From positions 43,750 through 107,749 of IMG/VR virus record IMGVR_UViG_3300028920_000045: a DNA stretch of 64,000 nucleotides; one strand, given 5' to 3'. Under the pieces are notes generated by a model that searched no databases, was not told the origin of the DNA, and was given only the letters and a program-made list of their open reading frames with translations. Below are positions 25,272 to 57,064 of the stretch, piece after piece (the stretch's first letter is position 1; each line of letters opens with the position of its first letter). The position numbers and the translations under genes were made by a program. This DNA is from a virus.

Positions 25272-26507
25272 ATGCCTAGAGGACCAGTCGACAGAAACGG
25301 GAACCGACGGATCAAGTGTAAGGAGTGCGGGACCTGGCATCATGCCCTCGCCCCCCACCTCGGGAAAAAACACGGGATGTCCGTCGAGGAGTACATCGAC
25401 AAGCACCGGGACCCGGATTCCGGTGTCGCCCCCTTGACGATCTCCGAGTACGCCTCGAAGGAGATCGACAGGAACCGGAAGAAGAAGGGGAAGAGGGAGC
25501 GGCCGACGTCGAAGAAGAAGAACAAGGTCACCCGTCCCCCCGAGGTCCTCGACATCGGAGGATGGGAGGTCGAGATCAGACCGGACGACGACATCCCCGA
25601 CTCGGCCCGCGACGACATCCCCGTCCACGACGAGCACTGGGAGGTCGACGAGGACTTCTTCTCCCGAGTGGCCGAGGCGATCTTCCTGGACGAAGTCCTC
25701 ATGATCGTCGGTCCGACTGGAGGAGGGAAGACGTCCGGGGTCGGGGAGTTCGCCTCACTGGTCAATGCGCCCTGGGTTCGTATCCAGGGGGACAAGGAAA
25801 CCTCGGTCGGAAAACTCTTCGGGAAGACGAAGGTCGTGACCGACCCGGAGACGAAGAAGCGGGTCACGGTCTTCGTCGAGGGGATCATCCCCCGGGCTCT
25901 CCGTCTCGGGTACTTCATTGTGATCGACGAGGTCGACGGACTCGACGAGGACATCCGACTCGCCCTCCACGAAGTTCTCGAAAAGGACGCCCAGGGTCGA
26001 CGTCGGTGTACCCTGGAGACGAACCTCGACGACGAGGTCGCCCGGGTCGTCTGGGCTCACCCTCGGACCAGGTTCTTCCTCACGGGCAACAACCTCGGAT
26101 CGGATCTCATGGGTCTGTACGGGGGGACGGACTCGGCTCCGAACCTCGCTTTCCTCGACCGGTGTGAGAGAGTCAACGTGACGTACCCTCCGAAGGAGGT
26201 GATCTCGTCCATCGTTCACAATAAGTCGGGAGGTCTCGACGTTCGGTACTGTGATCTGATCGCCAACGCCGTACACGAGATCCTGGAGGCCCATGTCAAC
26301 GCGGGTTTGACCTGGGTCTTCTCGATCCGTCGGGCCGTCACTCTCGGGCTCAAGTTCAAGTTGTACGAGGAGAGGGGTCTCCCGAAGTCGGACGCGGTCC
26401 AGAGGGTGATCCTCGACAACGTCCCGACCCCCGACATTCGGAACGACGTCCGAGGGATCATACAGAGGGTCGGGCTTCCCGTTCCGACGGTGAGGGCGAC
26501 ACCGTGA
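25272..26507 (+). CDS. CobS/MoxR-like AAA+ ATPase with N-terminal Ros/MucR-like zinc finger
   Basis: CKECG...HLGKKHGMSVEEY; GPTGGGKT; IVIDEVD; TGN; AFLDR. Confidence 0.85.
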   Translation: MPRGPVDRNGNRRIKCKECGTWHHALAPHLGKKHGMSVEEYIDKHRDPDSGVAPLTISEYASKEIDRNRKKKGKRERPTSKKKNKVTRPPEVLDIGGWEVEIRPDDDIPDSARDDIPVHDEHWEVDEDFFSRVAEAIFLDEVLMIVGPTGGGKTSGVGEFASLVNAPWVRIQGDKETSVGKLFGKTKVVTDPETKKRVTVFVEGIIPRALRLGYFIVIDEVDGLDEDIRLALHEVLEKDAQGRRRCTLETNLDDEVARVVWAHPRTRFFLTGNNLGSDLMGLYGGTDSAPNLAFLDRCERVNVTYPPKEVISSIVHNKSGGLDVRYCDLIANAVHEILEAHVNAGLTWVFSIRRAVTLGLKFKLYEERGLPKSDAVQRVILDNVPTPDIRNDVRGIIQRVGLPVPTVRATP

Positions 26508-28699
26508 AGACGACCAGGACGAAGTCGAAGCCGATGGTCTCGGGGTACTTCGGGACCCTGGCCGTGGTCCTCTCCAGAGAACTCGGGGTGAAGGTCATTC
26601 CGTCCGACGGTGCCTGTTGCACCGATTGTCGTACGACCATCGCCCTCCCGATAGCTGCCGAGCACCTCCCCGACGACTCGGCCCGAATCCTCGACGGACT
26701 CCTCGACCATGAGTCCGGACATATCCGGTGCGTCAAACTCGACGAGGAACTCGGACGAGTTCCCATCGACAAGGTTGAGCCGCCGGGGACGTCTCCTCAA
26801 CTTCATACGATAATGAACGGGTTGATCGACGGTCGTGACCAGATCAAAATGACCCGACTGTACCCGGGTGTCTCGGAGAACTTCGATCACTCGTACCGGT
26901 GGGGACGGGACAGTCACCTCCGGAACGTCGAGGAGTACGAGAAGACCGGTAACCCGGCACTCGCCCCCTCCCTCTTCCGCAACGTGGTCTGCGTTCTGAC
27001 CTCGATCATGAGGGGGTACGATCCGAGTCCCTGGGGTGAGGAGGCGAACGACCTGGTCCGGACTCACCTGGCAGACGAGGTCAGGGACGGGCTCCGACTC
27101 GTCGACGAGTTCGGGTCACCCGAGGAGTTCTTCTCCCTCTCGAAGCGGGTCCTCTCGAAGCTGGGGGACCTGGCCGAAGAACCGCCGCCTCCTCCCCCCG
27201 GTCCGGGTGGGGAGGGCGATCCGACTCCGGGAGAGGACGACGACGGTGACCCGTCCGGTGGTCAGGGTGGCGAGGAGGACGAAGACGACGACCAGGACGG
27301 TGAGGGTGAGGGAGACGAGGACGAGGACGGAGACGCCCAGGGCGAAGGGGACGACGAGGACGAGGATGGTCCCCAGGACGACGGAGACGGCCCAGGAGAG
27401 ACGAACGGGGACGAGGACGAGGGCGAGGACGAGGGTGAGGGTGAGGACGGGTCCGGGTCTGGAGACGGCCAGGAGGACGACGAGGACGGCGACGACCAGG
27501 ACGGTGAGGGAGACGACGAGGTCGACGACGACCAGGACGGTGAGGGAGAGGGTGGGGGAGACGAGGACTCCGACTCCCGAGGTGGGGAGCCTTCGGACAA
27601 GTGCGAGGGTGAGGTTGACTCGGTCGATCCCGATTACGGTGACGGAGGAGGAGGGATCGGTCCCGCTCTCCGGACCGCCCTCAAGGAAGACCTCGAAGCC
27701 CTGGAGTGCGACGACGACCCGGTCGACGGAGCTGCCAGACGTCACCTCGACGAGCAGTGCAAGAGGTCCCTCGGTCGGGTCCATATCCCGCACCCCGTTG
27801 CCCTTGCCGCCGACCGGGTGTGCGACCCCCTGGAGTTCACCTCGGCAAGCCGACAGGAACTCCTCAAGCTCTACCACTCGATCAAGAACCAGGTCACTCC
27901 GGAGATCGGTCGACTCCGGTCTCAACTCCTCCGAGCCCTCAAGTGTCAGCAGGCGAAGAAGCTCCGGGTCGAGCAGGAGGACGGGGAGTCCCTCCACGAC
28001 GGGTCACTCTACAAACTGATCTCGGGTGGGGACGAGAGGGTCTTCCGGAAGAGACTCCCCGGACTCAACCTCGACACCGACCTCTCGATCCTCACCGACC
28101 AGTCTGGGTCGATGTCGGGAGGAGGGAAGATCGAGACGGCCCGGAAAGCCGTGATCGCCCTGACCGAGACCTGTGCGTCGATCAAGGTCCCGGTTGAGGT
28201 CCTCGGGTGGGACACGGGCGAGACCGTCGTCTATCCGAATCCACCGTACAACCGGGGCGAGAATCAGAGGTATCGAGTCTATAAGACCCACGACGAACCT
28301 CTCAACGACACGGTCCGGGCTCGCCTCGCGTCGATGGGTTCCGGTATCCAGAATTGCGACTCCGAGGCCGTTGCGTGGGCGGCTGACCGACTCCAGTTGA
28401 GGAGGTCGAAGAGGAAGGTCCTCCTCGTCCTGTCGGACGGACATCCCGCCTCGTCGACCGTCGACTCCGGAGTCGACGGAGTGAATATCCGACGGGTCGT
28501 CGACCGGGCCTTCGACGCCGGGATCGAGGTCGTGTCCATCGGGATCAAGACCGACGCACCGAGGTATTACTATCCGGTCTCGATTGTCCTCCACGACATC
28601 TCGGCTCTCTCGAAGACCTTGGTCGGAATCCTGGACGCCCTTCTTCGACAGGGGAAGAGGGTCGTCCGCAAGATGGACCGGACAGAACTGGGAGTGTAG
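26504..28699 (+). CDS. CobT-like VWA-domain protein (HExxH N-terminus, acidic linker, MIDAS)
   Basis: DHESGH; long D/E/G linker; DQSGSM; LVLSDGHP. Confidence 0.85.
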   Translation: MKTTRTKSKPMVSGYFGTLAVVLSRELGVKVIPSDGACCTDCRTTIALPIAAEHLPDDSARILDGLLDHESGHIRCVKLDEELGRVPIDKVEPPGTSPQLHTIMNGLIDGRDQIKMTRLYPGVSENFDHSYRWGRDSHLRNVEEYEKTGNPALAPSLFRNVVCVLTSIMRGYDPSPWGEEANDLVRTHLADEVRDGLRLVDEFGSPEEFFSLSKRVLSKLGDLAEEPPPPPPGPGGEGDPTPGEDDDGDPSGGQGGEEDEDDDQDGEGEGDEDEDGDAQGEGDDEDEDGPQDDGDGPGETNGDEDEGEDEGEGEDGSGSGDGQEDDEDGDDQDGEGDDEVDDDQDGEGEGGGDEDSDSRGGEPSDKCEGEVDSVDPDYGDGGGGIGPALRTALKEDLEALECDDDPVDGAARRHLDEQCKRSLGRVHIPHPVALAADRVCDPLEFTSASRQELLKLYHSIKNQVTPEIGRLRSQLLRALKCQQAKKLRVEQEDGESLHDGSLYKLISGGDERVFRKRLPGLNLDTDLSILTDQSGSMSGGGKIETARKAVIALTETCASIKVPVEVLGWDTGETVVYPNPPYNRGENQRYRVYKTHDEPLNDTVRARLASMGSGIQNCDSEAVAWAADRLQLRRSKRKVLLVLSDGHPASSTVDSGVDGVNIRRVVDRAFDAGIEVVSIGIKTDAPRYYYPVSIVLHDISALSKTLVGILDALLRQGKRVVRKMDRTELGV

Positions 28700-28742
28700 G
28701 AATGGACGGGGTCTCCTCTCTCTCTGCTTTCTCTCCCCGTCC

Positions 28743-28783
28743 ACGGGACGCCCGGGATGGTCTCGGGCGTCCCGTCTTTCTCC
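28743..28783 (+). terminator. Probable intrinsic terminator
   Basis: ACGGGACGCCCG(G)GA-TGG-TC(T)CGGGCGTCCCGT hairpin followed by CTTTCT. Confidence 0.6.
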
Positions 28784-28802
28784 CTAACCGGAAGGGTTGA
28801 GC

Positions 28803-29660
28803 ATGGCACCCGGACTCGAAGAACTCCGGTCTCGGTTCTCGAAGGTCGGAAAGGCCGAGAGAGAGAAGAAGGCCGAAGAGGAACGGATCGCTCTCCGGGA
28901 GCGAGAGGTCAAGATGGTCGACCTCACCCTCAAGGGACTGGTCGACGCCCGGTCCGAACTCCGACTCCAGAACGAGGAGGCGGTTCGTCGAGGTGGAGAG
29001 GGTGTCGACGTCCCCGACTGTCTCGGGTTCTGTGAGGCCAGGAACCGGGAGAAGGCCAAGAGGGATACCTGTCGGGCCTGCGGGGTCCGTGGGAATTGTG
29101 AGTCGACCGACCGAGACCTCGGGGTCTGGAAGAACCTCAAGGCGTACGCTCCTCGGTGCTTCATACAGGGGCTCAACCGGAAGGACAGGAAGAACCGTAT
29201 CCAGTGCAACGCTTGTCCGTACAAGACCCCCTGTGTCGGCCATCGGGAGTACCGGGCTCTCCTGAAAAAGAGGGAGTTCTTCCAGAAGAAACAGAAGGAG
29301 AAGGAAGAGAGGGACCGGAAGGAAGAGGAGGCTCTCGCCCGAGCTGCCAAAGCACCAGACGAGATCAAGACCGACGTCGTCTTCGAGCGGTACGAGTATC
29401 GCGGGCTCACGGCCAAGGGCCGACGGTCCGAGAAGTTCTGGGAGGTCGCTCGTCGAGGACGGTTCCTCCTCCGACGGTGGGGGAAGATCAGGGGGACGAA
29501 GGTCGACCGTCTCCTCAACGTCTACTCGTCCGATACCGTGGCTCAAGAGAGGATGGACGAACTCACGTCCCAGAAGACGGGCAAGGGGTACCGGTACGAC
29601 AGCCGACCGACTCGGTCCGTCGTGATCCGCCCCGACTCGAAGACCTGGGTCGAGGCTTGA
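28803..29660 (+). CDS. Protein with two Cys4 modules and a C-terminal WGR domain
   Basis: KFWEV...RRWGKIRGT...QKTGKGY (WGR); PDCLG..CRACGVRGNC and PRCF..CNACPYKTPC. Confidence 0.7.
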   Translation: MAPGLEELRSRFSKVGKAEREKKAEEERIALREREVKMVDLTLKGLVDARSELRLQNEEAVRRGGEGVDVPDCLGFCEARNREKAKRDTCRACGVRGNCESTDRDLGVWKNLKAYAPRCFIQGLNRKDRKNRIQCNACPYKTPCVGHREYRALLKKREFFQKKQKEKEERDRKEEEALARAAKAPDEIKTDVVFERYEYRGLTAKGRRSEKFWEVARRGRFLLRRWGKIRGTKVDRLLNVYSSDTVAQERMDELTSQKTGKGYRYDSRPTRSVVIRPDSKTWVEA

Positions 29661-29670: not shown

Positions 29671-29988
29671 ATGCCAGAGTATACGAAGTGTCCCCATTGT
29701 GGATTTGCCGTCCCGATCCCCGGGACCAGGAAGAAGAGGACGACGAGGGTGATCGCTGGAGTGCCTGGTCAGTGGGAACCGACCGACTACCAGGGAGCAC
29801 GGAAGGGGGACGAGGTCCTTCTCGTTTTCGGGGTCGGGAAGAAGTCGCAGACCACTCGGGGCAGGGTCGTCCGGAAGTACCGGGGGATCTATCTTCGGAC
29901 CATCGGACCGCAACCGACGACTCGTACGTTCTTCGATGTCCCGACCGTGGACTCTGCGACGTCTGTCTTCCGGAGGGTGAGGACGTGA
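29671..29988 (+). CDS. Hypothetical protein (N-terminal CPHC)
   Basis: RBS GGAGGA; packed ORF. Confidence 0.55.
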   Translation: MPEYTKCPHCGFAVPIPGTRKKRTTRVIAGVPGQWEPTDYQGARKGDEVLLVFGVGKKSQTTRGRVVRKYRGIYLRTIGPQPTTRTFFDVPTVDSATSVFRRVRT

Positions 29989-30710
29989 CCCGTTCCAGGA
30001 AGATCCCTCCGGAGAGGGTCCGACCCGAGGTGGCCGTCTCCCCGGAGAACGTCCGGAAGTACGTCCGACTCCTTCGGACCCAGGCCATGAGACTCGCCCG
30101 AGCCGAACGGACCGGGATCGATGACGCCGACCAGGAGATCGCACTCCTGGTTATGGAGGCTCTCCCGAAGTACGACCCCCACCGGGCGACGGTCCGACAG
30201 TGGGTCCGACTCTACGTCACCGGCCGGGTCCGAGACCGGGTCGCCTCGGCATCGGCCGTGAAGAACCGTCCGACCGTCTGGACGTACGACCAGGTCTGGG
30301 GATGGTACCGTCAACCGGCCCAGGCGACTCCCGGGATCGAGGAAGACCAGGAGTCCGAAGATCTGACCACGACCGAGGACCAGTTCTTCGAGTCCGAACG
30401 TCGTGTCCGATTCGAGGAGGCCATCGCAGAGGCAGAGTCCGAACTTCGACGAACGGTCCGACCTGGTCAGGCCGACATCGCCGTCAAGGTCTTTCGGACT
30501 CGTCTGGAGGAGGCGACGGAGACGGGACGACAGAGACGACAGAACCCCCGGGCGACGGTTGAGTCCCTGGGGATCTCGTACTATGAGGAGAGACGACTCT
30601 GGCTCCAGGGTCGGACCCTCCTCCGGAGAGCACTCCGACAGAGAGGAGAACTCGGAGCCCCGGAGAGGGTCCGACCCCGAACTATTCACCACAAGGGCGA
30701 ACGCCCGTAA
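29985..30710 (+). CDS. Phage-encoded sigma70-family RNA polymerase sigma factor
   Basis: Region-2-like DDADQEIALLVMEALPKYDPHRATVRQWVRLYVTGRVRD; region-4-like VESLGISYYEERRLW; size typical of ECF/phage sigmas. Confidence 0.7.
   Translation: MTRSRKIPPERVRPEVAVSPENVRKYVRLLRTQAMRLARAERTGIDDADQEIALLVMEALPKYDPHRATVRQWVRLYVTGRVRDRVASASAVKNRPTVWTYDQVWGWYRQPAQATPGIEEDQESEDLTTTEDQFFESERRVRFEEAIAEAESELRRTVRPGQADIAVKVFRTRLEEATETGRQRRQNPRATVESLGISYYEERRLWLQGRTLLRRALRQRGELGAPERVRPRTIHHKGERP
30676..30687 (+). promoter_or_regulatory. Candidate phage promoter motif CCCGAACTATTC
   Basis: Matches the motif family; about 50 nt upstream of ATG 30738, within the sigma gene 3' end. Confidence 0.4.
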
Positions 30711-30737: not shown

Positions 30738-31958
30738 ATGGCGAAGAAGAAGAAGACGAAGTCCGAGGACGAGCACTCGATCCCGAAGTGTCTGGGGTTC
30801 CATGCCGGGGACTCGACCTGCGACGGTGACCCCGAGGCGGCTGACCCGGAGATGCGGGAGAGCTGCCCGGTCCGGGAGGAGTGCATCCGGCTCCAGTCCT
30901 ACGCCACCGAGACCGGGGAGGACGCGGACGAGCTGATCAAGGGCCACGCCTCGGTCGAGTCCGTGGTCCGGATGCTCGACGAGCAGGAGGACGACGACTC
31001 CGACGTCGAGGACGAGGACGACTCCGACGTCGAGGACGAGGAGGAGGACGTCGAGGACGAGGAGGAGGACGTCGAGGACGACTCCGACGTCGAGGACGAG
31101 GACGACGTCGAGGACGACGTCGAGGACGAGGACGAGAACCAGGAGTCCGAGGAGGACGAGGAGGAGGCCGAGCCGATGCCGACGAAGAAGACCAAGGACA
31201 AGACCAAGGACAAGACGACGACGAAGAAGGAGTCGACCAAGTCGAAGACCAAGTCGACGAAGAAGACCTCGAAGAAGTCGTCGAAGAAGAAGACGGCCCC
31301 CGCCAAGGACGAGACCTCGAAGAAGTCGTCGAAGAAGAAGACGGCCAAGGCCAAGACCAAGGACTCGGGGTCGAAGAAGACCTCGAAGAAGAAGACCGAG
31401 CCCGAGAAGCCCGAGTGCTTCGAGGACGAGACCAAGTACAACGGGAACGTGGACCCCTGCAAGTCCTGTCCGGTCGGGAAGGAGTGCAAGACCCGGGTCT
31501 ACACGAAGCGGACCCTCGCCCGTCGGAAGGCGAAGAAGAAGGAGACGGCCCAGGAGCCGCCGAAGAAGCCGAAGACGACCACGACCAAGGGGTCGACCCC
31601 GAAGTCGCCCCAGACGTCGGCTCCGGTCGCCACGGACGGCAACCCGGTCCTCGGGGTCGCCCACTCCCAGGGGTGGGACGTCCAGGACTTCGGGACGTAC
31701 CAGGAGGTCGGTCGGTTCGTCGGCCGGGGCCAGACCCCCGAGGTCTTCCTCCGGGTCTTCGAGGACGGGGCGTTCCTCCGGGTCGCCACCTCCGACACCT
31801 CCCCGGCCGGTCTCCGGGCCGACCCGTCATTCCTGGTCGAGACCCTCAAGGCGAAGAAGTCCGACGCCCCCGGCTTCGACTTCGACCTGGAGGTCAAGAC
31901 CAAGGGCGTCCGGAAGTCCCTGATCGAGACCCTGACCGACGAGCCCTCGATCATCTAG
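30738..31958 (+). CDS. Hypothetical protein: Cys4 module, acidic block, Lys/Thr/Ser block, Cys4 module, globular C-terminus
   Basis: Composition directly visible; strong RBS. Confidence 0.75.
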   Translation: MAKKKKTKSEDEHSIPKCLGFHAGDSTCDGDPEAADPEMRESCPVREECIRLQSYATETGEDADELIKGHASVESVVRMLDEQEDDDSDVEDEDDSDVEDEEEDVEDEEEDVEDDSDVEDEDDVEDDVEDEDENQESEEDEEEAEPMPTKKTKDKTKDKTTTKKESTKSKTKSTKKTSKKSSKKKTAPAKDETSKKSSKKKTAKAKTKDSGSKKTSKKKTEPEKPECFEDETKYNGNVDPCKSCPVGKECKTRVYTKRTLARRKAKKKETAQEPPKKPKTTTTKGSTPKSPQTSAPVATDGNPVLGVAHSQGWDVQDFGTYQEVGRFVGRGQTPEVFLRVFEDGAFLRVATSDTSPAGLRADPSFLVETLKAKKSDAPGFDFDLEVKTKGVRKSLIETLTDEPSII

Positions 31959-31968: not shown

Positions 31969-32586
31969 GTGGCCCCTTCCATCGACGACCTCCGGAAACG
32001 ATACCGTCCCGGACGTCGGAAGAAGGACGACGAGACCGAGACCTCTGGCCGTGGTGGTCGGGGGTCTCGGTCAACCCGTCCTTGTATCCGGTGCAAGGGC
32101 CAGGGTACGGTCGGGGGGGACGAGTTCTCGAAGACGGCCGAGGTCCGGTGTCCTCGGTGCGGGGGGACGGGGATCGATCCCGACACACCCCACGAAGAAC
32201 GACGGCCCCGACGAGCCGGGACCGAGGTTGACCCCGAGGACCTCTTCCGTACTCCCGACGAGAGGAAGAAGGCCAGGCAGAAGAAGGTCAACCCGAAAGC
32301 CCTGGCCGACAAGGTCCGGAAGAAGACCGGGAAGAAGTACAAGATCGTCGACGACGGCCGTGGTCACAAGGACGCGGTCCTCTACTTCGGGAAGTACTCC
32401 GGGTCGAAGGTCTCTCACCTGGTCGCGGACGAGGATGGACGGAGCTATCTTCTCTGGGTCCTCAAGGAAGGATTCGAGGACGAACTCAAGGAAGTCGTCG
32501 TCCACCGTCTCCACCTCGAAGGGTACGACCCGGCCGAACGGATGTCAGACCCCCGAGGTACCCTCCCCCGTCGGACCCCTTTCTAG
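31969..32586 (+). CDS. Protein with DnaJ-type CxxCxGxG repeats and a C-terminal FGKY (DUF3820/ExoX-C-like) domain
   Basis: CIRCKGQG, CPRCGGTG; LYFGKYSG...SYLLW. Confidence 0.6.
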   Translation: MAPSIDDLRKRYRPGRRKKDDETETSGRGGRGSRSTRPCIRCKGQGTVGGDEFSKTAEVRCPRCGGTGIDPDTPHEERRPRRAGTEVDPEDLFRTPDERKKARQKKVNPKALADKVRKKTGKKYKIVDDGRGHKDAVLYFGKYSGSKVSHLVADEDGRSYLLWVLKEGFEDELKEVVVHRLHLEGYDPAERMSDPRGTLPRRTPF

Positions 32587-36394: not shown

Positions 36395-36943
36395 ATGCCC
36401 GAGAAGATCGTGATCAAGATCAACGGAGAGGATGTCAACGTCACGTCCGACCTCGTCGTCGGACCGGACCTCGACAGGGAACTCGACCGGGGGTCGGCCC
36501 TCGTCGCCAAGTACGGCCGTCTCCTGTCGAGAGCCCAGAACAAGGAAGCCCAGTGCCTCGCGGAGTACCGGCACTGGCGAGCCCGACAGACCGAGACCAT
36601 CCTCCAGGCCGACCCGAAACTGGCCGAGTGGAAGGTCAAGGCCAAGGTCGAGAGCCTCCCCCAGTTCCTCCAGCACAAGGAAGACATTGCGTCGGCCGAG
36701 GAGGAGACGCACGGTCTCTGGGGTGTGTACGAGGCCGTCTGCCGACGGTGTGACCTCCTCCAGTCCCGGAACTCCAGGGACGTCCGGAACCTGTCGACTC
36801 TCGGGACCGACGGTCTCCCGGGCGAGGAGGAGATCGACAAGGCCGAGAAGACCCGACGGGTCAGTGAGATCGTCGGGCGGAAGAAGAAGTCGAAGACCAA
36901 GGGCGCACCGACTCGGGAGCGTCCGAAGAAGACGCGGTCCTAG
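36395..36943 (+). CDS. Putative recombination mediator (UvsY-like)
   Basis: Helical protein upstream of SSB and RecA; call rests mainly on synteny. Confidence 0.5.
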   Translation: MPEKIVIKINGEDVNVTSDLVVGPDLDRELDRGSALVAKYGRLLSRAQNKEAQCLAEYRHWRARQTETILQADPKLAEWKVKAKVESLPQFLQHKEDIASAEEETHGLWGVYEAVCRRCDLLQSRNSRDVRNLSTLGTDGLPGEEEIDKAEKTRRVSEIVGRKKKSKTKGAPTRERPKKTRS

Positions 36944-36967: not shown

Positions 36968-38260
36968 ATGGGAACTGACCTCGACAAGCTCCGGAAGTAC
37001 AAGAAAGACAGAGCCACGGGGAGGAACCTCCTGATCCCCGAGGGCGACTCCCTCGTGTACATCGCCCCGCCCGCCCGGGAGGACTGGGACCTCCCGTTCC
37101 TGGAGACGGCCGTTCACTTCGGGTTCCCCGGTGGTCCGAAGCTCTGCCTCAACTCCGACCGGAACCCGCTCCTCAAGGACCCCGAGTTCCTCAAGGTGGC
37201 GAAGAAGGCCGGGGTCGACGTCAACGGTCCCTGCAAGATCTGTCAGAAGCTCTCGGGGAAGCCCGGGAAGCCGGGTCTCTGGGACACGGACAAGGAAGCC
37301 GCCCGGAAGATCTCCGCGAGCAACCGGTTCCTGATGATCGCCGGTCGCCTCTGGGGTCGGAAGGACTCGACCGACTCGTACTCCCCGGTCGAGCCCTTCG
37401 AGCTGAAGCCCCTTCCCGTCGGCAAAAAGATCTGGGAGGCCGTGGTCGACATCTTCCTCGACCTGGAGGTCGACCTCACCGATCCCCTCGCCGCCATCCT
37501 GATCAAGTTCCACCGGGAAGGGACGGGCCTGGAGTCCCAGTACAACATCACCGCCGACCCGAAGACGACGAAGAAGCCCCTCCGTCTCGGGAAGGCCGAG
37601 CGCCGGATGATCCGGGAGGCGCTCGCGGAGGGGTCCGACTGTGATCCCTACCTCGCCGCCCTGGAGTGGTACACCTCCCCCGAGGAGATGTCCGCGCTCC
37701 TGGAGGGGGTCGACCTCGACGACGACGACGAGGACGACGACGACGACGACGAGGTCGAGGCCAAGCCGCCGAAGAAGTCGAAGAAGACCTCGAAGAAGAA
37801 GACCTCGAAGAAGAAGTCGAAGAAGAAGCCCACGTGCTTCGGGATCGACTACTCCTCCGACGACGAGGACTGTGAGGACTGTGAGTTCCGGTCCGAGTGC
37901 GCGGACGAGTCCGGGCACGAGTCCGACGACGACGAGGACGAGGACGAGGACGACGAGGTCGACGAGGTCGAGGACGACGACGAGGACGACGAGGAGGAGG
38001 ACTCCGACGACGAGGACTCCGACGACGACGACGAGGACGAGGACGACGAGGACGACGAGGACGACGAGGACGAGGACGACTCCGACGAGGACCTGGAGGA
38101 CCTGGAGGCGGCTCTCGACAAGAAGACCGGCAAGGGCAAGAAGTCGAAGAAGAAGCCGGTCAAGTCCTCGAAGAAGAAGACCTCGAAGAAGAAGACCTCG
38201 AAGAAGACCTCGAAGAAGAAGTCGAAGAAGACCCCCGCCCGCAAGCGGCCGAAGAAGTAG
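36968..38260 (+). CDS. Single-stranded DNA-binding protein (gp32-like) with long charge-block tail
   Basis: H..C..CKIC zinc site, DLTDP, REGTGLESQY; acidic and Lys-rich C-terminal blocks around a Cys4 module. Confidence 0.75.
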   Translation: MGTDLDKLRKYKKDRATGRNLLIPEGDSLVYIAPPAREDWDLPFLETAVHFGFPGGPKLCLNSDRNPLLKDPEFLKVAKKAGVDVNGPCKICQKLSGKPGKPGLWDTDKEAARKISASNRFLMIAGRLWGRKDSTDSYSPVEPFELKPLPVGKKIWEAVVDIFLDLEVDLTDPLAAILIKFHREGTGLESQYNITADPKTTKKPLRLGKAERRMIREALAEGSDCDPYLAALEWYTSPEEMSALLEGVDLDDDDEDDDDDDEVEAKPPKKSKKTSKKKTSKKKSKKKPTCFGIDYSSDDEDCEDCEFRSECADESGHESDDDEDEDEDDEVDEVEDDDEDDEEEDSDDEDSDDDDEDEDDEDDEDDEDEDDSDEDLEDLEAALDKKTGKGKKSKKKPVKSSKKKTSKKKTSKKTSKKKSKKTPARKRPKK

Positions 38261-38377: not shown

Positions 38378-39475
38378 ATGGCGAAGTCGAAGAAGAGGAC
38401 TCGGCCGAAGAGGAAGAAGTCGGTCGCACAGCTCATGGTCTCGGCCGACTCGGAACTCATGGTCGGTCAGTCGGCCCGAGACGCCGGTCGTCTTCGGGGT
38501 GTGATCCCGACGGGTCTGGAGTCGGTCGACATCGCCATCGGTCGAGGAGGTCTCCCCCAGGGCCGGGTGTCGATGATCCAGGGGGACGAGGGTGGAGGGA
38601 AGACGACGTTCTGTCTCTCCTGCTGTCGGTCCGTCCAGGAGCGGGGAGGGGTGGCGATCTATGCTGACCCCGAGAGGAAGCTCGATCTCGGGTACGCCGA
38701 GAAAGTCGGGGTTGACCTGGACGAGCTGATCCTCGACCACCCGAGAACGATGGAACGGTTCGCACTGACCCTCAAGAGGTCGGTTGATCGTCTCCTCGAC
38801 ATCTGCGAGGAGGAGGGGGAAGAGATCCCGGGGTTGATCGTGGTCGACTCGATCACGGCCCTCGACACCTTCCTCGAAACGTCTCTCGAAGACCTGGCCG
38901 GTCAGGGCAAGCCGAGGAAGGGGAGGAAGAAGGGAGAGGGGGTCGCCCCGAGGGTCGGTGCTCAACCGTTGGCGATGTCGGTTCTCCTACGGAAGATCGT
39001 CCCGGTTCTGGCCGAGTCGCCTATCGCACTCCTCCTCGTCTCACAGCTTCGGACCAAGCTGACCCACTGGGGAGCCCAGAACGACTCGACCTGTGGTCGT
39101 GCTCCGAAGTTCTATTCCTGCCTGATTATCCAGGCTCGTCCGGAGTCGGAGAACGAGTCGGGTTCAAGAGTCGGGGAGCGGGTCGAGTTCTACGTCGCCA
39201 AGAACCAGATCGCACAGCCGTTCAAGTCGGGACAGTACTCGATCCTCGGAGCCCGGGGTCTCGACCGGGAGAGGGACATCCTCGACGCGGCCGTGACCCT
39301 GGACCTTGCCGAGAGAGCTGCCAAGGGCGGGTGGATTACGTTCTCGGACGACACCCCGTTCAAGGGTCTCAAGGTCCAGGGACCGAGGGGTCTCCGGGTG
39401 AAGATGCGGAAGAGACCGGAACTCGGGGACGAGATCCGAGCCGTGATCCGGAAGACGGCCGGGTGGGAGGACTAG
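38378..39475 (+). CDS. recA: RecA/UvsX-like recombinase
   Basis: IPTG..VDIAIGRGGLPQGR, GDEGGGKTT, IVVDSITAL, SQLR, KFYS. Confidence 0.93.
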   Translation: MAKSKKRTRPKRKKSVAQLMVSADSELMVGQSARDAGRLRGVIPTGLESVDIAIGRGGLPQGRVSMIQGDEGGGKTTFCLSCCRSVQERGGVAIYADPERKLDLGYAEKVGVDLDELILDHPRTMERFALTLKRSVDRLLDICEEEGEEIPGLIVVDSITALDTFLETSLEDLAGQGKPRKGRKKGEGVAPRVGAQPLAMSVLLRKIVPVLAESPIALLLVSQLRTKLTHWGAQNDSTCGRAPKFYSCLIIQARPESENESGSRVGERVEFYVAKNQIAQPFKSGQYSILGARGLDRERDILDAAVTLDLAERAAKGGWITFSDDTPFKGLKVQGPRGLRVKMRKRPELGDEIRAVIRKTAGWED

Positions 39476-48545: not shown

Positions 48546-48923
48546 ATGATCACGGCCCTCGACGTACTGGAAGCCCTGACCGAGACCATGTCGTCGAAGA
48601 CGACTGTCCACCGAGCGGCTCGAAGTCTGGCCCGTGACCCCGTCTTCCTCCAGAGGGTAGCCGCCAAGCTGCGGAAGAAGGTCAAGGCCCAGATCGAGGA
48701 GAAGTCGTTGACCGAGAACGAACTGACAGGAGACCTCGTCGGGTTCTGCTCGACGACGACTCGGGCCAGGGAAGCCGCCGTCCGACTCCGGACCGTCTTC
48801 CACGTTCTCCACCGACTCCCGGACAAGAAAGAAGTCCCGAGGGTGAAGCTACCTCCGGAACTGATCGAGAGACCGAAGAAGAAGCCGAAGACGAAGAAGC
48901 ACGGAAGGAGAGTCGTCCGATGA
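48546..48923 (+). CDS. Hypothetical protein with basic C-terminal tail
   Basis: RBS present; overlaps the next gene start. Confidence 0.55.
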   Translation: MITALDVLEALTETMSSKTTVHRAARSLARDPVFLQRVAAKLRKKVKAQIEEKSLTENELTGDLVGFCSTTTRAREAAVRLRTVFHVLHRLPDKKEVPRVKLPPELIERPKKKPKTKKHGRRVVR

Positions 48924-49810
48924 TCGACAAGACGGATCAGTACAATCGTTTCCTCGGGGGGTGGGTCGGTGCGTTCCTGGGGAACGTCCTCGGGTCGTAC
49001 ACGGAGGGGAAGTCCCCCGCCCAGGTCGAGGACTCCTTCCCCCGGGGACTCCAGGTCCTCCCGGCTCCGACCGCACCGTCGGGTCTCGCCCGAGTCCTTC
49101 GGGAGACGGGTGAGGCGATCTCTTCGAGGACGTTCCCTCGTCCTCCGAGGAAGTCGGACGTCGGTCTCCTGTCCCCGGTCCTCCGGGCGATCACCCCGGG
49201 ACTCTCCTCGGTTCCGGCCGGTCTCTCCCCCGACGAGCTGGACGAGTTCGTCCTCCGGTCCATCGGCCAGGACGACCCACCCTTCCCGGCCCCGTCCGTC
49301 CTCCTGGCCCTCTGGTACGCCCGGGTCCTCCGGGTCGTGGTCACGACCGACGACGACGGACTCCAGGAGGTCGACGAGTACCTCTTCGGACCCATCGACA
49401 AGATCGAACGCCCCTCCCCGGCTTTCATCCGGGCCAAGGACGACGACCAGTCGTACGTATGGGGAGAGGCTCGTCTCCTCTTGGCCGAGGGTGTCGGGAC
49501 AGGTCTCGCCACGCTGGAGCGTTTCGACTTCACCGACCCGGTCCTCGATCCCTACACCCTCGCGGCCGGTGTCGTCGCCTGGGCGACCGACGTCCGGGAC
49601 GAGACCTTCGCCCGGTCCCTGGCCTTCCTGGTCTCCCGTGGTGGGGACTCCTCGTCTCTCGGGATGATCGGAGGGGCGGTCCTCGGAGCCCGGATCGGAT
49701 TCGACGATCTCGACCCCGACCTCCTGGAAGGGCTCACCGGTCTCGACCGTCTGGTCGAGGAGGGGTCCCGTCTCTTCCAGGCCGCACAGGAGTACAAGTC
49801 GGGGGAGTGA
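48920..49810 (+). CDS. ADP-ribosylglycohydrolase (ARH/DraG)-fold protein with degenerate active site
   Basis: RFLGGWVGAFLGNVLG...GGDSSSLGMIGGAVLGARIG match ARH termini; TDD motif absent. Confidence 0.7.
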   Translation: MIDKTDQYNRFLGGWVGAFLGNVLGSYTEGKSPAQVEDSFPRGLQVLPAPTAPSGLARVLRETGEAISSRTFPRPPRKSDVGLLSPVLRAITPGLSSVPAGLSPDELDEFVLRSIGQDDPPFPAPSVLLALWYARVLRVVVTTDDDGLQEVDEYLFGPIDKIERPSPAFIRAKDDDQSYVWGEARLLLAEGVGTGLATLERFDFTDPVLDPYTLAAGVVAWATDVRDETFARSLAFLVSRGGDSSSLGMIGGAVLGARIGFDDLDPDLLEGLTGLDRLVEEGSRLFQAAQEYKSGE

Positions 49811-49811
49811 C

Positions 49812-50153
49812 GTGACTCGGGACTCGAAGAAGAAGTGCGAGCACTGCGGGGGACCGAACCCGTGTATCCTGGTCCGTCCGAAGGGGAAGCCCGCGAAGTG
49901 GTACTGCGTCAAGGTCGGGTGTCAGTCGGCCGCGTCGACGTACTACGGACAGATCTTCAGCGAGAAAGACCTGGTCGGGATCAGCACTGACCCGGAGCCG
50001 CCGAGTCCCCCGACTCCCAGGAAGACCAGGGTCAAGAGGGAACGACCGACACCGACCAAGGTCAAGAGGGAGAGGCCGAAGAAGGCCCCGACCCGTGAAC
50101 GGCCGAAGAAGACCGTCGTCCGAGAGAGACCTCGTCGAGTCGTGAAGGGGTAA
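49812..50153 (+). CDS. Zinc-finger protein with four RERP repeats in a basic tail
   Basis: CEHC...CVKVGC; four RERP copies. Confidence 0.6.
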   Translation: MTRDSKKKCEHCGGPNPCILVRPKGKPAKWYCVKVGCQSAASTYYGQIFSEKDLVGISTDPEPPSPPTPRKTRVKRERPTPTKVKRERPKKAPTRERPKKTVVRERPRRVVKG

Positions 50154-50156
50154 CCC

Positions 50157-50936
50157 ATGCCTGCCGGGAAGTCCGTCCTCAAGCTGCCACGGGCCGAACT
50201 CCGACTCCTCGTCGCACTGGTCCGACAGTGGCTCACCGAGCACAAGACCGACGCCGAGATCCTGGAGACCATCGAAGAGTACGGGATCACCGACATCCGG
50301 GAAGTCCGAACCCTCAAGAGACTGGTCAAGGACGAGGACCGAGACGAGGTCAAGGGGAAGGAACCCCTCGACGTCTTCGTCGAGTACCGCCGAGACCTTC
50401 TCGCCATCGCCCGAGACGCGGACGACTTTATCGAGAGGATGTCGACCAAGGAAACGCAACAGTCGACGATCCCGTCTGCCCTCCGAGTGAAACTCGACGC
50501 CCTCGACAAGATCGCCCAGAGAGGGATCGACCTGGGGATCTTCCGAGCCCGACCGAAGGGGAGGGGGGTCCTCCTCGGGGGGATCATCCTGGCCGACCTG
50601 TCCGACGAAGAACTCCTCGGAGTGGTCGAGCAGATCACCGACAACGTCCGAGGTCTCCGAGAGGTAGCGAGTCGACCCCTCCTCCCGGCCGGTGGATACC
50701 GTCGGACGAAGACCCCCGCCGATTACAAGCCGACGAAGGACGAGAACGAAGACGACGTCGTCGAAGCCGAGGTCGTCGAGGAGGCTCCGGTCACAGTCCC
50801 ACCCGAGCAGAGGAAAAAGAGGAAGCCCTCTCCTGTCCGTGAGAGACCGAAGAGGGTCAAGGACAAGATGTCGATCACGACCTCGGACGGGGAGACCGAC
50901 GGACGAGCCCGACCTCGTCGACGGAGACCGACCTAG
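50157..50936 (+). CDS. Hypothetical helical protein with charged tail
   Basis: Packed ORF, 259 aa. Confidence 0.6.
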   Translation: MPAGKSVLKLPRAELRLLVALVRQWLTEHKTDAEILETIEEYGITDIREVRTLKRLVKDEDRDEVKGKEPLDVFVEYRRDLLAIARDADDFIERMSTKETQQSTIPSALRVKLDALDKIAQRGIDLGIFRARPKGRGVLLGGIILADLSDEELLGVVEQITDNVRGLREVASRPLLPAGGYRRTKTPADYKPTKDENEDDVVEAEVVEEAPVTVPPEQRKKRKPSPVRERPKRVKDKMSITTSDGETDGRARPRRRRPT

Positions 50937-51694
50937 TGCCGATGCGGATACCGTGGGGATGGGAGATCGCCGTCCCGGTCATGCTCAACTTGGCCGAGGT
51001 CTGGTCCGAACGTCCTATCGTTCGTCCGTCCAGTGAAGAGATCTCCCAGGACGAGGGTATCCCGAACGGTGGACGGTGGCTCTCCCAGGCCCTCGCCAAG
51101 CTGGTCCGAGCCAAGCTCCTCACGCACCAGAAGAGGGGGCAGAGAGGATACCGTCTCCAGAGGTCACCGTCGAGGATTAACATGTACTCGGTCCTCATGG
51201 CAGGGCCGACCCGGTCCGAGGCGAGACCGAGCAACCGGATCTTTGATCACCGAGTTCTCTTCCTCGACCGGTCCGACCAGGACCGGACCCGGGAGTCGAG
51301 AGGACGGAACCCGAGCGCCTGGTTATTCGACCGGACCGAGGACCTCGTCGTCGAGTTCCTCAAGCGGACGACACTGGCCCAGGTCCTCGCCGTCAACCTC
51401 GACCTCGTCCCCCGAGTGGTCTACACCGACGAAGGGAAGACGAACCAGCACCTCCGGTCAATCCGGGAGTCGACGCACAAGATCCTCCGAGAGTTCTGTC
51501 CCCTGATCGAGACGACGAAGAGTCGACTCCAGGTCTGGCCGTATCGAGACGTCGCAGACGCCGTCAAGGATGGGTTCCGGGCGTGGTACGAGGACCTCCC
51601 CGAGAACCGACGGAGGGAGCCGAGGTACCTCCTGGACCGAGACCTCGGTTCCCTCCGTCTCTCGATCCTCGACCGGGTGTCCGATGCCGGTTAG
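50936..51694 (+). CDS. Rrf2-family winged-helix transcriptional regulator with C-terminal extension
   Basis: WLSQALAKLVRAKLLTHQKRGQRGYRLQRSPSRINMYSVL matches the Rrf2 signature. Confidence 0.7.
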   Translation: MPMRIPWGWEIAVPVMLNLAEVWSERPIVRPSSEEISQDEGIPNGGRWLSQALAKLVRAKLLTHQKRGQRGYRLQRSPSRINMYSVLMAGPTRSEARPSNRIFDHRVLFLDRSDQDRTRESRGRNPSAWLFDRTEDLVVEFLKRTTLAQVLAVNLDLVPRVVYTDEGKTNQHLRSIRESTHKILREFCPLIETTKSRLQVWPYRDVADAVKDGFRAWYEDLPENRRREPRYLLDRDLGSLRLSILDRVSDAG

Positions 51695-54209: not shown

Positions 54210-54271
54210 CCCCCGAGTGTAACCCGAGCTGGAGAGGTCATGTCGACCCAGACAGCCACAGGAGGAAGACC

Positions 54272-55189: not shown

Positions 55190-55199
55190 GTGACCTCCA

Positions 55200-55601
55200 G
55201 TGCCATCCCTCTCCGAACTCCGACACCGATTCCGCAAGAAACCTCCCCAGGACGAACGGAGCCGTCCCAGGACGGACGAACGACCCTCGACGGGGACCCG
55301 AACCCGTCCCGGGGCGTTCGCCGTCTCTGGGGGACGACAGGTCACTCCGGAGACCCCCCAGGGGAAGGAGGTCGCGGTCCGTCACCTGTGTCGGGTCGCG
55401 GAACTCGACCGGAAGACCATCCTCAAGTGTCTCGGGGCCGAGTCGGGAAAGGTGGGTCTCTCCCTCTCGACCTTGATCGAGTTTCTGGTCGACCTGGTCG
55501 CCCGAGAGAGACCTCGACGATCACCCTCCGACGTCCGTGACCTCGTCCGGTCGTTCCTCCAGGACTCTCGGCCGCACCTCGACGAGAACCGACGGGTCTA
55601 G
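55200..55601 (+). CDS. Hypothetical protein (possible RHH DNA-binding)
   Basis: GLSLSTLIEFLV resembles RHH helix B; contains RERP. Confidence 0.45.
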   Translation: MPSLSELRHRFRKKPPQDERSRPRTDERPSTGTRTRPGAFAVSGGRQVTPETPQGKEVAVRHLCRVAELDRKTILKCLGAESGKVGLSLSTLIEFLVDLVARERPRRSPSDVRDLVRSFLQDSRPHLDENRRV

Positions 55602-55610
55602 TAAGATCCG

Positions 55611-55624
55611 GTCCCGAACTATCC
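55611..55624 (+). promoter_or_regulatory. Candidate phage promoter motif GTCCCGAACTATCC
   Basis: Intergenic; identical to 48515-48528; precedes RBS GGAGG. Confidence 0.55.
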
Positions 55625-55640
55625 CGAGGGAGGTGACCTC

Positions 55641-55898
55641 ATGCGAGAGGTCCGAGGAGTCTGCTTTCTGGCCTTCACGTTCAAGACGTCCGAGGACGTC
55701 GACGACGAGGGAGCCCGACTCCTGGCACTCCGGTCTCTCCTCAAGGCCGAGATCGAAGCCAACAGAGCAGGTGACCTCCGGGTCCACTTCTTCCCTCCGG
55801 AGTTCACCGACCCGGACCAGTCGAAGACCCTGGCCGAGATCTTCTCGGGGTCCAGGGACGAGGCCGTCGAATTCGTCGGCCGTCTGATCAAGGGGTGA
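55641..55898 (+). CDS. Hypothetical protein
   Basis: RBS GGAGGTG. Confidence 0.55.
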   Translation: MREVRGVCFLAFTFKTSEDVDDEGARLLALRSLLKAEIEANRAGDLRVHFFPPEFTDPDQSKTLAEIFSGSRDEAVEFVGRLIKG

Positions 55899-55899
55899 C

Positions 55900-56277
55900 A
55901 TGGGTACGACTCGACGAGTAGACCCACCGCCTGTCGTCCACGGCCGACGACCTGGGGTTCTCCTGGTCAACCCGGAGTGTCTGGGTCAGTCCCTCGACTC
56001 GGCCACGGCACAGATCCTCAAGGAACAAGACGCAGGGTACCTCGACCCTCACACCGCAATCCGGCAACTCCTCACGGTCCAGGACCTCCGTCGGTCCCTG
56101 ACCGGGAAGGACGACCCGGTATTCCGTCAACTCCTCAACCGGGCGAAGGCTCAACTTGAGAACACAGTCTTCGTCGTCCGACAGATCACAGGGGAAGACC
56201 ATGTCCGAGAAGTCCGATTCCGAGTCTACGTTGATCACGACCCGGGACGTGTACAACCGCGTCGTCGAAAGGGTTGA
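55900..56277 (+). CDS. Hypothetical protein
   Basis: Packed ORF. Confidence 0.45.
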   Translation: MGTTRRVDPPPVVHGRRPGVLLVNPECLGQSLDSATAQILKEQDAGYLDPHTAIRQLLTVQDLRRSLTGKDDPVFRQLLNRAKAQLENTVFVVRQITGEDHVREVRFRVYVDHDPGRVQPRRRKG

Positions 56278-56581
56278 TCCCGAGTCGTTCGGAGACAACC
56301 CCCGACTCGCCATTTCCATCCTCAAGGCCGTCGCGGAGGTCTTCACCGAGATCCTCGCGGAACTCATGCCGCCCCGGGACGAGGACCTCGGACCGGGCGA
56401 CATCCGGTTCACGTTCCCAGACGGGAACCGGGTCACGGCCCGGTGCCGGTACGAGGAGGACGACGACCCCGACCCCGACCCCGACGAGACCCGATGGGTC
56501 CTCCCCCTCGGGAATGGGAACCGGATGGTCGTCGACCTGGAGCACGACCGGATCGAAACCGACGACGGAGGTGAGCCGTGA
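56201..56581 (+). CDS. Hypothetical protein
   Basis: ATG with purine-rich RBS. Confidence 0.5.
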   Translation: MSEKSDSESTLITTRDVYNRVVERVDPESFGDNPRLAISILKAVAEVFTEILAELMPPRDEDLGPGDIRFTFPDGNRVTARCRYEEDDDPDPDPDETRWVLPLGNGNRMVVDLEHDRIETDDGGEP

Positions 56582-56832
56582 CCGACGACCTCGACCGGAA
56601 AGCCCTGGGTCTCGTCCTGGGAGCCAACGACGTCGCCGTCCGGACCGCCCTCCGGTGTCTGGCCGAGGACCTCGGTGTCGACCAGGAGAAGATCAAGACG
56701 GTCCTTGAGAACGGGTCCGAAGACCCGGAGGACCTGGTCCTCGTCGAAGAGATCAAGACGTACTTCGACCAGGACAACCGAGACCAGGCGAGAGCCGCCG
56801 TCCAGGAACTTCGGAGGTTGAGGGGTGTATGA
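56578..56832 (+). CDS. Hypothetical protein
   Basis: RBS GGAGG; overlapping start. Confidence 0.55.
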   Translation: MTDDLDRKALGLVLGANDVAVRTALRCLAEDLGVDQEKIKTVLENGSEDPEDLVLVEEIKTYFDQDNRDQARAAVQELRRLRGV

Positions 56833-57064
56833 CTTCTCGGCCGCAACGACCATCCTGGTCGGGTGTCAAGAGACCCTGTCCGTGGTCCACTCCCTTCTCG
56901 CACTCGTCGAGGAGAGGTGGAAGTCGAAGGACGTGTCCGAGGCCGTCCGACTCGTCGGGATCGCCTGTGACCTCCTCCGACCTCCGTTCAAGGGACTCCA
57001 GAAGAAACCCCCCGAGGTCAGGGAACGACCTCCTCGGGTGAAGAAGACGAAGAGGAAGACGTGA
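56825..57064 (+). CDS. Hypothetical protein with RERP basic tail
   Basis: Ends KKPPEVRERPPRVKKTKRKT. Confidence 0.5.
   Translation: MYDFSAATTILVGCQETLSVVHSLLALVEERWKSKDVSEAVRLVGIACDLLRPPFKGLQKKPPEVRERPPRVKKTKRKT

Follow-up and report, generated by a model that had tools for sequence, protein, structure and literature searches.

The 64,000-nucleotide stretch of viral DNA analyzed here, referred to throughout as the window, covers bases 43,750-107,749 of one contig that is 107,749 bases long (IMG/VR record IMGVR_UViG_3300028920_000045) and encodes a set of otherwise unrelated proteins that share a short basic peptide, Arg-x-Arg-Pro (R-x-R-P), mostly near one of their ends. The contig has a G+C content of 63% and nearly all of its genes lie on the + strand, as do all of the R-x-R-P features located below; positions are window coordinates unless marked as genome coordinates. 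Genes were predicted by a model of codon usage that had been trained on this same genome, giving 142 proteins (34,573 residues), of which 139 were scanned against Pfam and 136 against PHROGs. Gene starts are our own calls, so some N-terminal copies of the peptide hinge on the choice of start. Sheath, baseplate and tape measure proteins, matched in the Pfam and PHROGs scans, mark the virus as a contractile-tailed phage. It combines a T4-style recombination set with a replisome of bacterial style, the two together comprising DnaE, beta clamp, DnaB, loader, primase, UvsW, RecA/UvsX, SbcCD, FEN and UDG, and further encodes a sigma-like factor, a CobS/CobT-like pair of AAA_5 and VWA proteins and 7-deazaguanine genes. 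It has no close cultured relative, and a megablast search with 20 kb of the genome against cultured phages gave no match. The analyses described below establish R-x-R-P as a selected, peptide-level short linear motif that is positioned at protein ends and restricted to the clade of phages to which this genome belongs.

A sequence-only reading of this DNA had singled out the exact tetrapeptide RERP as occurring nine times in six proteins of the window, and we find in-frame copies at 25494, 36914, 50037, 50067, 50094, 50121, 50838, 55503 and 57020. A six-frame translation of the window contains 24 matches, only these nine of which fall in the frame of a called gene. Eight of the nine sit in Lys/Arg-rich tails or linkers, much as that reading had described, the exception being residue 102 of the protein encoded at 55200. 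The codons differ from copy to copy, with all six Arg codons in use, which places the conservation at the level of the peptide. The related R-x-R-P ends that had been quoted for RecA, the Mre11/SbcD-like nuclease, the SSB-like protein (SSB, for single-stranded DNA-binding protein) and the sigma factor also proved correct. Two further copies of RERP lie upstream of the window, at the N-terminus of the beta clamp and the C-terminus of a 129-residue protein, bringing the genome-wide count to 11 copies in 8 of 142 proteins against a composition expectation of 0.94.

The more general pattern R.RP (the dot standing for any residue) occurs 37 times in 25 of the 142 proteins, as compared to 13-18 times for each of the 11 other orderings of two arginines, a proline and a wildcard. 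In 23 of the 37 cases the copy begins no more than 25 residues from an end of its protein, a zone that holds 24% of all residues; C-terminal copies mostly end 0-5 residues before the stop and N-terminal copies, hereafter like all such copies called tags, mostly begin at residues 3-12. Shuffling the proteome within 10-residue blocks, which keeps local composition, yields 15.2±3.7 copies of R.RP, 1.09±1.0 of RERP and 6.3±2.4 of terminal R.RP, and the observed counts were reached in 0 of 500 shuffles. The enrichment check that had been proposed for exact tetrapeptides thus gave a divided result: local shuffles never reach the counts, whereas RERP, at rank 2 of 1,672 exact tetrapeptides across the proteome (p 1.3e-5), does not clear multiple testing. 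Ranked by the number of proteins that contain it, R.RP itself is 50th of 7,354 gapped patterns, and in a de novo scan of terminal segments it ranks 4 of 1,692 in this genome (G0), 4 of 1,410 in one relative (G1) and outside the top 8 in another (G2). Since the motif was picked after inspection and its proteome-wide ranks are modest, the single genome is not convincing taken alone.

We therefore turn to G1 (113,077 bases, 67% GC) and G2 (107,406 bases, 64% GC), two complete relatives that were reached from RecA homologs of 52-57% identity by an alignment-based scan of IMG/VR, which also recovered a fragment (G3) and a fourth lineage (L002, 72% GC). R.RP is again the commonest ordering in these relatives, with 29 copies versus 6-15 for the other orderings in G1, 24 versus 4-13 in G2 and 8 versus 1-3 in a third. 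Terminal copies number 21 in G1 and 14 in G2, where block shuffles give 5.8±2.2 and 4.9±2.2, respectively, and reach the observed value in 0 of 500 cases. Among ends that are tagged in G0, 16 of 33 orthologous ends keep R.RP (17 if the G2 RecA, which our own gene call had shortened, is given a longer start), as compared to 2.0±1.3 when the orthologs' own tails are shuffled (0 of 5000 shuffles reach the observed count) and to 5 of 277 untagged ends. Conservation in related phages, another check that the sequence-only reading had asked for, thus bears the motif out, and replication in the relatives together with orthologous conservation settles the question of chance. The three genomes are kin, so their agreement is evidence of selection and not of independent origin. 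In a strain 95-99% identical to G0 (L003), substitutions within tags affect the middle residue and the flanks, never either arginine or the proline.

The excess is confined to the clade. Three outgroup phages with gp32-like, UvsY-like and portal families of 24-41% identity have no R.RP excess (4 copies versus 2.7, 2 versus 1.7 and 6 versus 4.5); one of their genomes has a GC content of 58%. None of nine orthologous ends in these three phages carries a terminal tag, and the outgroup gp32-like proteins end at the helix that precedes the basic tail of this clade. Thirty-four more distant RecA loci contain just 0-2 copies of R.RP each, and only 1 of 95 distant RecA N-termini has the motif. Two RecA proteins from other phage lineages, a homolog of 35% identity (P0009, MGRRARPK...) and that of L089 (MERKRPTSK...), do have an N-terminal R-x-R-P, and the genome that holds the second has no general R.RP excess. 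A BLAST comparison further identified 29 core genes, that at genome positions 3099-4349 among them, which are common to the three tagged genomes and match nothing in the three outgroups without the tag. Their products include the sigma-like factor and the beta clamp, the four-tag protein described below, an ADP-ribosylglycohydrolase-like protein and several strongly acidic proteins without assigned function (net charge -20 to -40). We regard these clade-specific genes as candidates for the tag receptor.

These comparisons also redefine the conserved unit. The sequence-only reading had envisaged a shared short linear peptide; a portable motif on the flexible ends of many unrelated proteins is indeed what we observe, but RERP is not the unit, as the two relatives contain only 2 and 4 copies of it. 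The middle residue is free, being mostly Glu in G0 (7 of 23 terminal copies), Lys/Arg in G1 and Arg, Glu or Gln in G2. All three genomes share flanks enriched in Lys/Arg at -5, -4 and -1 and in Val, Ile or Pro at -2. In G0, Lys/Arg is also enriched at +4 and +5 and Pro is common at -2, and the long Lys runs around tags are largely peculiar to this genome. In its fuller, preferred version the motif reads [VI]-K-R-x-R-P and has Lys/Arg slightly farther upstream. VKRERP recurs in unrelated proteins with synonymous differences, and APTRERPKK is shared at 9 of 9 residues by the UvsY-like tail and the third repeat of the array protein described below, with 22 of 27 bases identical and 5 synonymous differences. 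A cause at the DNA level can be rejected on the strength of such synonymous changes among recurring peptides and of the use of all six Arg codons. Composition as the sole cause is likewise rejected by the other orderings, the block shuffles in G0, G1 and G2 and the outgroups.

Within the window, the first carrier is the AAA_5/CobS-like ATPase (gene 25272-26507), in which RERP lies at 25494-25505 in a basic linker (KKKGK-RERP-TSKKK), directly after a Ros/MucR-type zinc finger (PF05443, residues 12-63, E 6.7e-5, 23.4 bits against a cut-off of 25.4). The linker tag occupies the same place in both relatives (RERP and RARP). The C2H2 finger with which this ATPase begins (25272-25460) is also conserved in both relatives, and we know of no other instance of a Ros/MucR finger fused to a CobS-like AAA_5 ATPase. 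The sigma-like protein (gene 29985-30710), whose Sigma70_r2 match (E 5.4e-5) is slightly below the cut-off, has RVRP at residue 11 (30015-30026), kept in both relatives at residue 6 (RVRP and RRRP), and a second RVRP in its C-terminal region (30666-30677), kept in neither. The 205-residue protein encoded at 31969-32586 has RYRP at residue 11 (31999-32010), after a second kind of N-terminal tag, SIDDLRKRY, that is described below; its orthologs read KGKRPKR and KRGRAPKP instead, and a G1 paralog reads RGRP.

The recombination genes account for the next group of tags. RERP lies 5 residues from the C-terminus (36914-36925) of the UvsY-like mediator (gene 36395-36943) and is kept in both relatives (RARP and RERP). 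PHROGs assigns this protein to no family. An AlphaFold model built from three sequences (pLDDT 77) has T4 UvsY as its best PDB matches (4zwt and 4zwr, TM 0.72 by target, E 7e-3), so that the UvsY-like label holds up; residues 164-182 of the tail have pLDDT below 50. RKRP lies 2 residues from the C-terminus (38240-38251) of the gp32-like SSB (gene 36968-38260), after long Asp/Glu and Lys blocks, and R425, R427 and P428 are invariant in three orthologs. The likeness to gp32 is a lead from a protein atlas only, in which the look-alikes are gp32-family clusters (score 0.94); the protein has no Pfam match at E up to 5 and no PHROGs family, PDB sequence searches with the gp32-like and UvsY-like profiles returned low-complexity matches only or none, and a word-based homolog search with the gp32-like core returned clade members only. 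The RecA/UvsX-like recombinase (gene 38378-39475) has RTRP at residue 7 (38396-38407), and its three homologs of 52-57% identity with a complete N-terminus all have R-x-R-P there (RKRP, RTRP and RRRP); a fourth homolog is N-terminally shortened and one of 34% identity lacks the motif. A further RKRP at residue 344 of RecA (39407-39418), 18 residues from the C-terminus, is kept in neither relative and, judging from this comparison, probably lies outside the tag system. The Mre11/SbcD-like nuclease (gene 39755-40993) has RARP at residue 5 (39767-39778), which is RTRP in the L003 strain, HARP in one relative and lost in the other.

The remaining carriers of the window belong to no PHROGs family. 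A 113-residue protein (49812-50153) contains four RERP copies spaced 9-10 residues apart in its C-terminal half (50037-50132), which is modeled as coil, and a Cys4 zinc-ribbon-like domain in its N-terminal half. Its orthologs have 2 to 4 copies (RARP/RQRP in one and RIRP followed by three RQRP in the other), so that a multi-copy array occurs in all lineages, and the family is known from the clade only: a search of 1.84 billion representatives gave 3 real hits plus one spurious eukaryotic repeat protein. The adjacent 259-residue protein (50157-50936) ends in a double tag, RARP-R-RRRP-T (50904-50930), that reads RKRP-x-RRRP in both relatives, and has an additional RERP (50838-50849) in a basic linker that is an insertion without counterpart in the relatives. 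Both genes belong to a tight four-gene block (48920-51694) that encodes, in order, ADP-ribosylglycohydrolase-like, four-tag, double-tag and Rrf2-like regulator proteins; all four have orthologs in both relatives, where the last three are also adjacent. The protein encoded at 55200-55601, without ortholog in the relatives, has RSRP at residue 20 (55257-55268), after the second N-terminal tag SLSELRHRF, and RERP at residue 102 (55503-55514), in a non-basic internal context; this second copy may be there by chance. Finally, RERP lies in the basic C-terminal tail (57020-57031) of a 79-residue protein (56825-57064), likewise without ortholog in the relatives.

Several of these tags, together with others outside the window, are present in all three genomes: those at the C-termini of the portal (VK-R-[QE]-R-P), the UvsY-like and the gp32-like proteins and at the N-termini of sigma and RecA, and also the AAA_5 linker, the array protein, the double tag, the 129-residue protein and the linker of a 204-residue protein. 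Others vary, the clamp being tagged in G0 only, the UvsW C-terminus in G1 and G2 only and a PDDEXK nuclease in G1 and L002. The annotated carriers all handle DNA (clamp, portal, RecA, SbcD, sigma-like, gp32-like and UvsY-like proteins and the ATPase with its MucR-type finger), as do the tagged UvsW and PDDEXK nuclease of the relatives, and a zinc-finger module precedes the tag in two proteins, the AAA_5 ATPase and the array protein. When we sorted the annotated proteins by function ourselves, the tag was present on 7 of the 24 that handle DNA and on 0 of the 17 assigned to the tail, the head shell, lysis or metabolism (Fisher p 0.015). The tail genes, in which the sequence-only reading had seen no exact RERP, are free of terminal R-x-R-P copies, and so are the lysis and metabolic genes. 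The accompanying description of the carriers as non-virion proteins is wrong, because the portal, a virion protein encoded outside the window, is tagged at both ends.

Two further features of these proteomes accompany the R-x-R-P tag. A second recurrent tag, confined to N-termini, has the form M-x-x-[LS]-[DE]-[DE]-L-R-x-R-[FY]-x-[KR] and is often followed by K/R and R-P. It is found in the window at 28803-28850 (a WGR protein), 31969-32020 and 55200-55250, in G1 at 314, 73698, 94317 and 96276 and in G2 at 11506, 33885 and 38547, on carriers that are unrelated to each other and that, in the relatives, include a topoisomerase-like protein among others. Matches to L[RK].[RKY][FY] lie within the first 25 residues in 4 of 6, 4 of 5 and 3 of 7 cases in the three genomes, and a profile of ten such ends found about five more N-termini. 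The gp32-like N-terminus was not among them, so that the idea of the tags as copies of a gp32 N-terminal arm does not go beyond a resemblance. The other feature is a group of blocky polyampholytes, in which Asp/Glu-rich blocks, the longest of 69 residues, take turns with blocks rich in Lys (TSKKK repeats): the gp32-like protein (36968-38260), a 406-residue protein (30738-31958), the CobT-like protein (26504-28699) and a 153-residue protein (genome 11743-12204). The Lys blocks are far shorter in the relatives, and the Asp/Glu blocks of the gp32-like protein are long in all three genomes.

What does the tag bind? The sequence-only reading had proposed recruitment to a common hub, the nucleoid or a compartment. 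The data do not separate these targets; we favor DNA, or the nucleoid, and take a protein hub seriously as its rival. The account that we place first, while holding it somewhat short of probable, is that R-x-R-P is a relaxed, AT-hook-like and sequence-tolerant handle that binds DNA as a polyanion. By this account, an ancestor of the clade would have appended R-x-R-P to disordered N- or C-terminal ends or linkers of unrelated DNA-transaction proteins. The two arginines, on one face of an extended peptide that is then kinked by the proline, could reach into a groove or onto phosphates, in the manner of a relaxed AT-hook or of the R-x-R arms by which other proteins bind grooves, with flanking Lys/Arg contributing extra charge. 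The effect would be to concentrate replication, recombination, transcription and packaging proteins on phage DNA, where the small four-tag protein might act as an HMGA-like architectural protein. We infer DNA as the ligand and rank it first because the carriers, portal included, all touch DNA, zinc fingers adjoin the tag, the flanks are basic, the array is HMGA-like and one paralog reads RGRP. In this paralog, which is encoded by G1 and related to the 31969 protein, the canonical core of an AT-hook lies between basic flanks, close to where 31969 has its N-terminal RYRP.

The comparison with AT-hooks is instructive in both directions. Their core is Gly-Arg-Pro with K/R flanks and often a proline, non-canonical AT-hook-like forms exist, and R-x-R arms that enter grooves are established for them, according to a review (PMC11354804). 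The phage tag shares with them the brevity of its Arg-x-Arg-Pro core and the placement of that core in basic, disordered sequence, single or arrayed and often beside other DNA-binding modules, and it has the basic K/R flanks, often with a proximal proline. It departs from them in its core, as Glu, Gln, Lys, Arg, Val, Ser, Thr or Ala replaces Gly in nearly all phage copies, in its lack of a match to the Pfam profile and in its position at the extreme ends of enzymes across a proteome. AT-hooks are known from HMGA proteins and from Myxococcus CarD, which has four of them after an acidic region.

Several findings weigh against DNA as the ligand. Two features would suit a DNA-binding peptide badly: Glu sits in the middle of 7 of 23 terminal G0 copies, and the flanks of several conserved tags are neutral or acidic (ERRRPEL in sigma and RQRPEV in the G2 array). 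The Gly of a true AT-hook occupies the middle in only 1 of 37, 2 of 29 and 2 of 24 R.RP copies in G0, G1 and G2, respectively, and only one of these five is terminal. AT_hook (PF02178) is not matched at E up to 5 in seven carriers or carrier parts, the four-copy protein included, nor at E up to 0.001 in any of the 139 scanned proteins. Long identical peptides (VKRERP and APTRERPKK) and tags that hug the protein ends fit a specific protein pocket better. These same properties, namely Glu in the middle, neutral or acidic flanks, the rarity of Gly, the long identical peptides and the extreme ends, make docking to a shared protein hub the main rival. The prime candidate for such a hub is the gp32-like SSB, which, through its acidic domain or its core, could receive recombination and replication proteins and so load them on gp32-coated DNA. 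Such a hub would mirror, with the charges exchanged, the recruitment of partners by acidic SSB tails. We consider this possible, if less so than DNA binding. The tag does behave like a linear motif, with an invariant short core at extreme ends and fast gain and loss (clamp, UvsW, SbcD and PDDEXK), and VKRERP and APTRERPKK recur despite synonymous differences. The carriers cover the whole T4-type recombination set (RecA/UvsX, UvsY-like, UvsW, SbcD and gp32-like proteins), the gp32-like Asp/Glu blocks persist in all three genomes, a second, helix-like N-terminal tag is present in the same proteomes and both the tag system and the 29 core genes are clade-specific. T4 gp32 offers a parallel: its LAST motif (Lys-Arg-Lys-Ser-Thr), a basic motif of the terminal arm that resembles DNA-contacting core residues, docks on an acidic surface of the neighboring gp32, and the acidic C-domain of gp32 binds other replication and recombination proteins (PMC12893549). 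The gp32-like N-termini of this clade (KKDRAT, KRDRAT and KRERST) resemble the form KRERPT of some tags at the position of T4 LAST (PMC12893549), a resemblance only, with the gp32 label resting on the atlas lead. The phage system is similar in that a gp32-like protein with a large acidic domain coexists with tags on a matching set of clients; it differs in that the basic peptide is on the clients and on the C-terminus of the SSB, and reads R-x-R-P in place of (K/R)3(S/T)2. Portal, sigma-like and zinc-finger proteins would be unexpected clients of gp32, the gp32-like protein is itself tagged and the second-tag profile misses its N-terminus, all of which speak against this hub. The beta clamp is an unlikely receptor, given that the G0 clamp is itself tagged and that DnaE has no terminal R.RP in any of the three genomes.

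Other interpretations fare less well. The tag might be an address label for a place, either an import or retention signal for a phage compartment or a sticker for a condensate scaffolded by the gp32-like, 30738 and CobT-like proteins. One end-tag on many unrelated proteins is what such a label would look like, alternating Asp/Glu and Lys blocks are of the kind able to drive charge-based demixing and a multi-copy tag protein could cross-link such a phase. We nonetheless judge a place label improbable, as Pfam and PHROGs scans of 139 and 136 of the 142 proteins gave no shell-, tubulin- or transport-like match, the portal, which is bound for the site of capsid assembly, is tagged too and the Lys blocks are much reduced in relatives that retain the tag. 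A phage nucleus in particular is rejected, since these scans gave no shell- or tubulin-like match. Classical nuclear localization signals are similar in being transferable address labels with K/R clusters and some K-R-x-R-P-like strings, and some G0 tags hold patches of this type (KKRTRPKRKK). The invariant residues of the tag are, however, Arg, Arg and Pro and not a K-K/R-x-K/R patch, which the tags of the relatives often lack, and the importin system is to our knowledge absent from bacteria. Slightly less credible still is a recognition mark for an enzyme, which could remodel or degrade proteins in the AAA+ manner (either the AAA_5/VWA pair of the phage or a Clp-type machine of the host that recognizes basic end-tags) or could modify arginine, for instance by ADP-ribosylation. 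Tags that lie a few residues from either end recall end-recognized AAA+ tags, the phage encodes both an AAA_5 ATPase and a CobT-like VWA protein, and an ADP-ribosylglycohydrolase-like gene lies immediately upstream of the four-tag gene, with a WGR-domain protein encoded nearby. Against this, the AAA_5 ATPase is itself tagged, the portal and the gp32-like protein, being structural or stoichiometric, would be strange proteins to degrade, the Pfam and PHROGs scans turned up no ADP-ribosyltransferase and the ADP-ribosyl link is one of gene neighborhood only. Least likely, and strongly disfavored, is that the tag has no function and is a by-product, noticed post hoc, of Arg/Pro/Lys-rich low-complexity tails in a high-GC genome. 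The failure of the single-genome ranks (RERP 2 of 1,672, R.RP 50 of 7,354 and terminal R.RP 4 in two genomes) to survive multiple testing would suit this explanation. It is countered by the other 11 orderings, which are 2-3 times rarer in all three genomes, by 10-residue block shuffles that never reach the counts, by the 16 of 33 orthologous ends that keep the motif versus 2.0 expected, by outgroups without excess, one of them at 58% GC, and by the near-identical L003 strain, whose changes spare Arg, Arg and Pro.

Hub-and-peptide wiring is textbook for cellular replisomes, T4 and T7, in the form of clamp-binding motifs, SSB tips and gp32 tails. Known examples include the beta-clamp-binding motif QL[SD]LF, the PIP box, the C-terminal tips of SSB and the acidic tails of T7 gp2.5 and gp4. 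R-x-R-P is a motif of this same kind, one short peptide that many unrelated DNA enzymes carry at a flexible end and that is quickly gained and lost between relatives; its sequence and its polarity are new, and its list of clients is unusually broad. The established motifs have receptors that are known and a hydrophobic and/or acidic character, whereas the phage tag is basic, has no hydrophobic anchor beyond an occasional Val/Ile at -2 and contains none of the residues of the hydrophobic QL[SD]LF-like consensus, which is found on the replicative polymerase and other clients of the clamp. At the level of listings and abstracts, we found no RxRP or RERP motif in phages in the literature, nor basic end-tags that extend across a proteome. 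A basic handle is here common to a clamp, a recombinase, a mediator, an SSB, a nuclease, a helicase, a sigma factor and a portal. If its partner is DNA, the tag is a bacterial-virus counterpart of AT-hook tethering, on enzymes across the proteome; if the partner is a protein, the two form a new docking pair by which replication and recombination are coupled to transcription and packaging. In either case, a peptide some 10 residues long, three of them invariant, provides a cheap handle on the organization of the DNA factory of an uncultured phage, and the work yields a search rule, which is to look for recurrent end-peptides that are conserved in orthologs.

A bolder synthesis, which we consider doubtful and offer as speculation, is that the clade uses a proteome-wide peptide address code with at least two portable end-tags. 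Through R-x-R-P at either end and the N-terminal x-L-D-E-L-R-x-R-F/Y helix, proteins of replication, recombination, late transcription and packaging would be connected to a single nucleoprotein scaffold on the polyampholyte gp32-like protein. Such a scaffold would amount to an acidic-tail SSB hub of reversed polarity, with an origin in one ancestor and tags that have since been traded between proteins.

Some observations on the same proteins and genome stand apart from the tag. The gp32-like protein contains, between its acidic blocks at about residues 290-312 (37830-37900), a Cys4 module of the form C-F/Y-G-x-D-Y...D-E-D-C-x-x-C-x5-C, and a module of the same type lies between acidic blocks of the 204-residue head-region protein (genome 29200-29300). 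Arginine codon use across the genome is unusual, CGC accounting for only 4% despite the 63% GC, with CGG at 38%, CGA at 21% and AGG at 17%. The gapped pattern that ranked first in two of our scans was CP.C.

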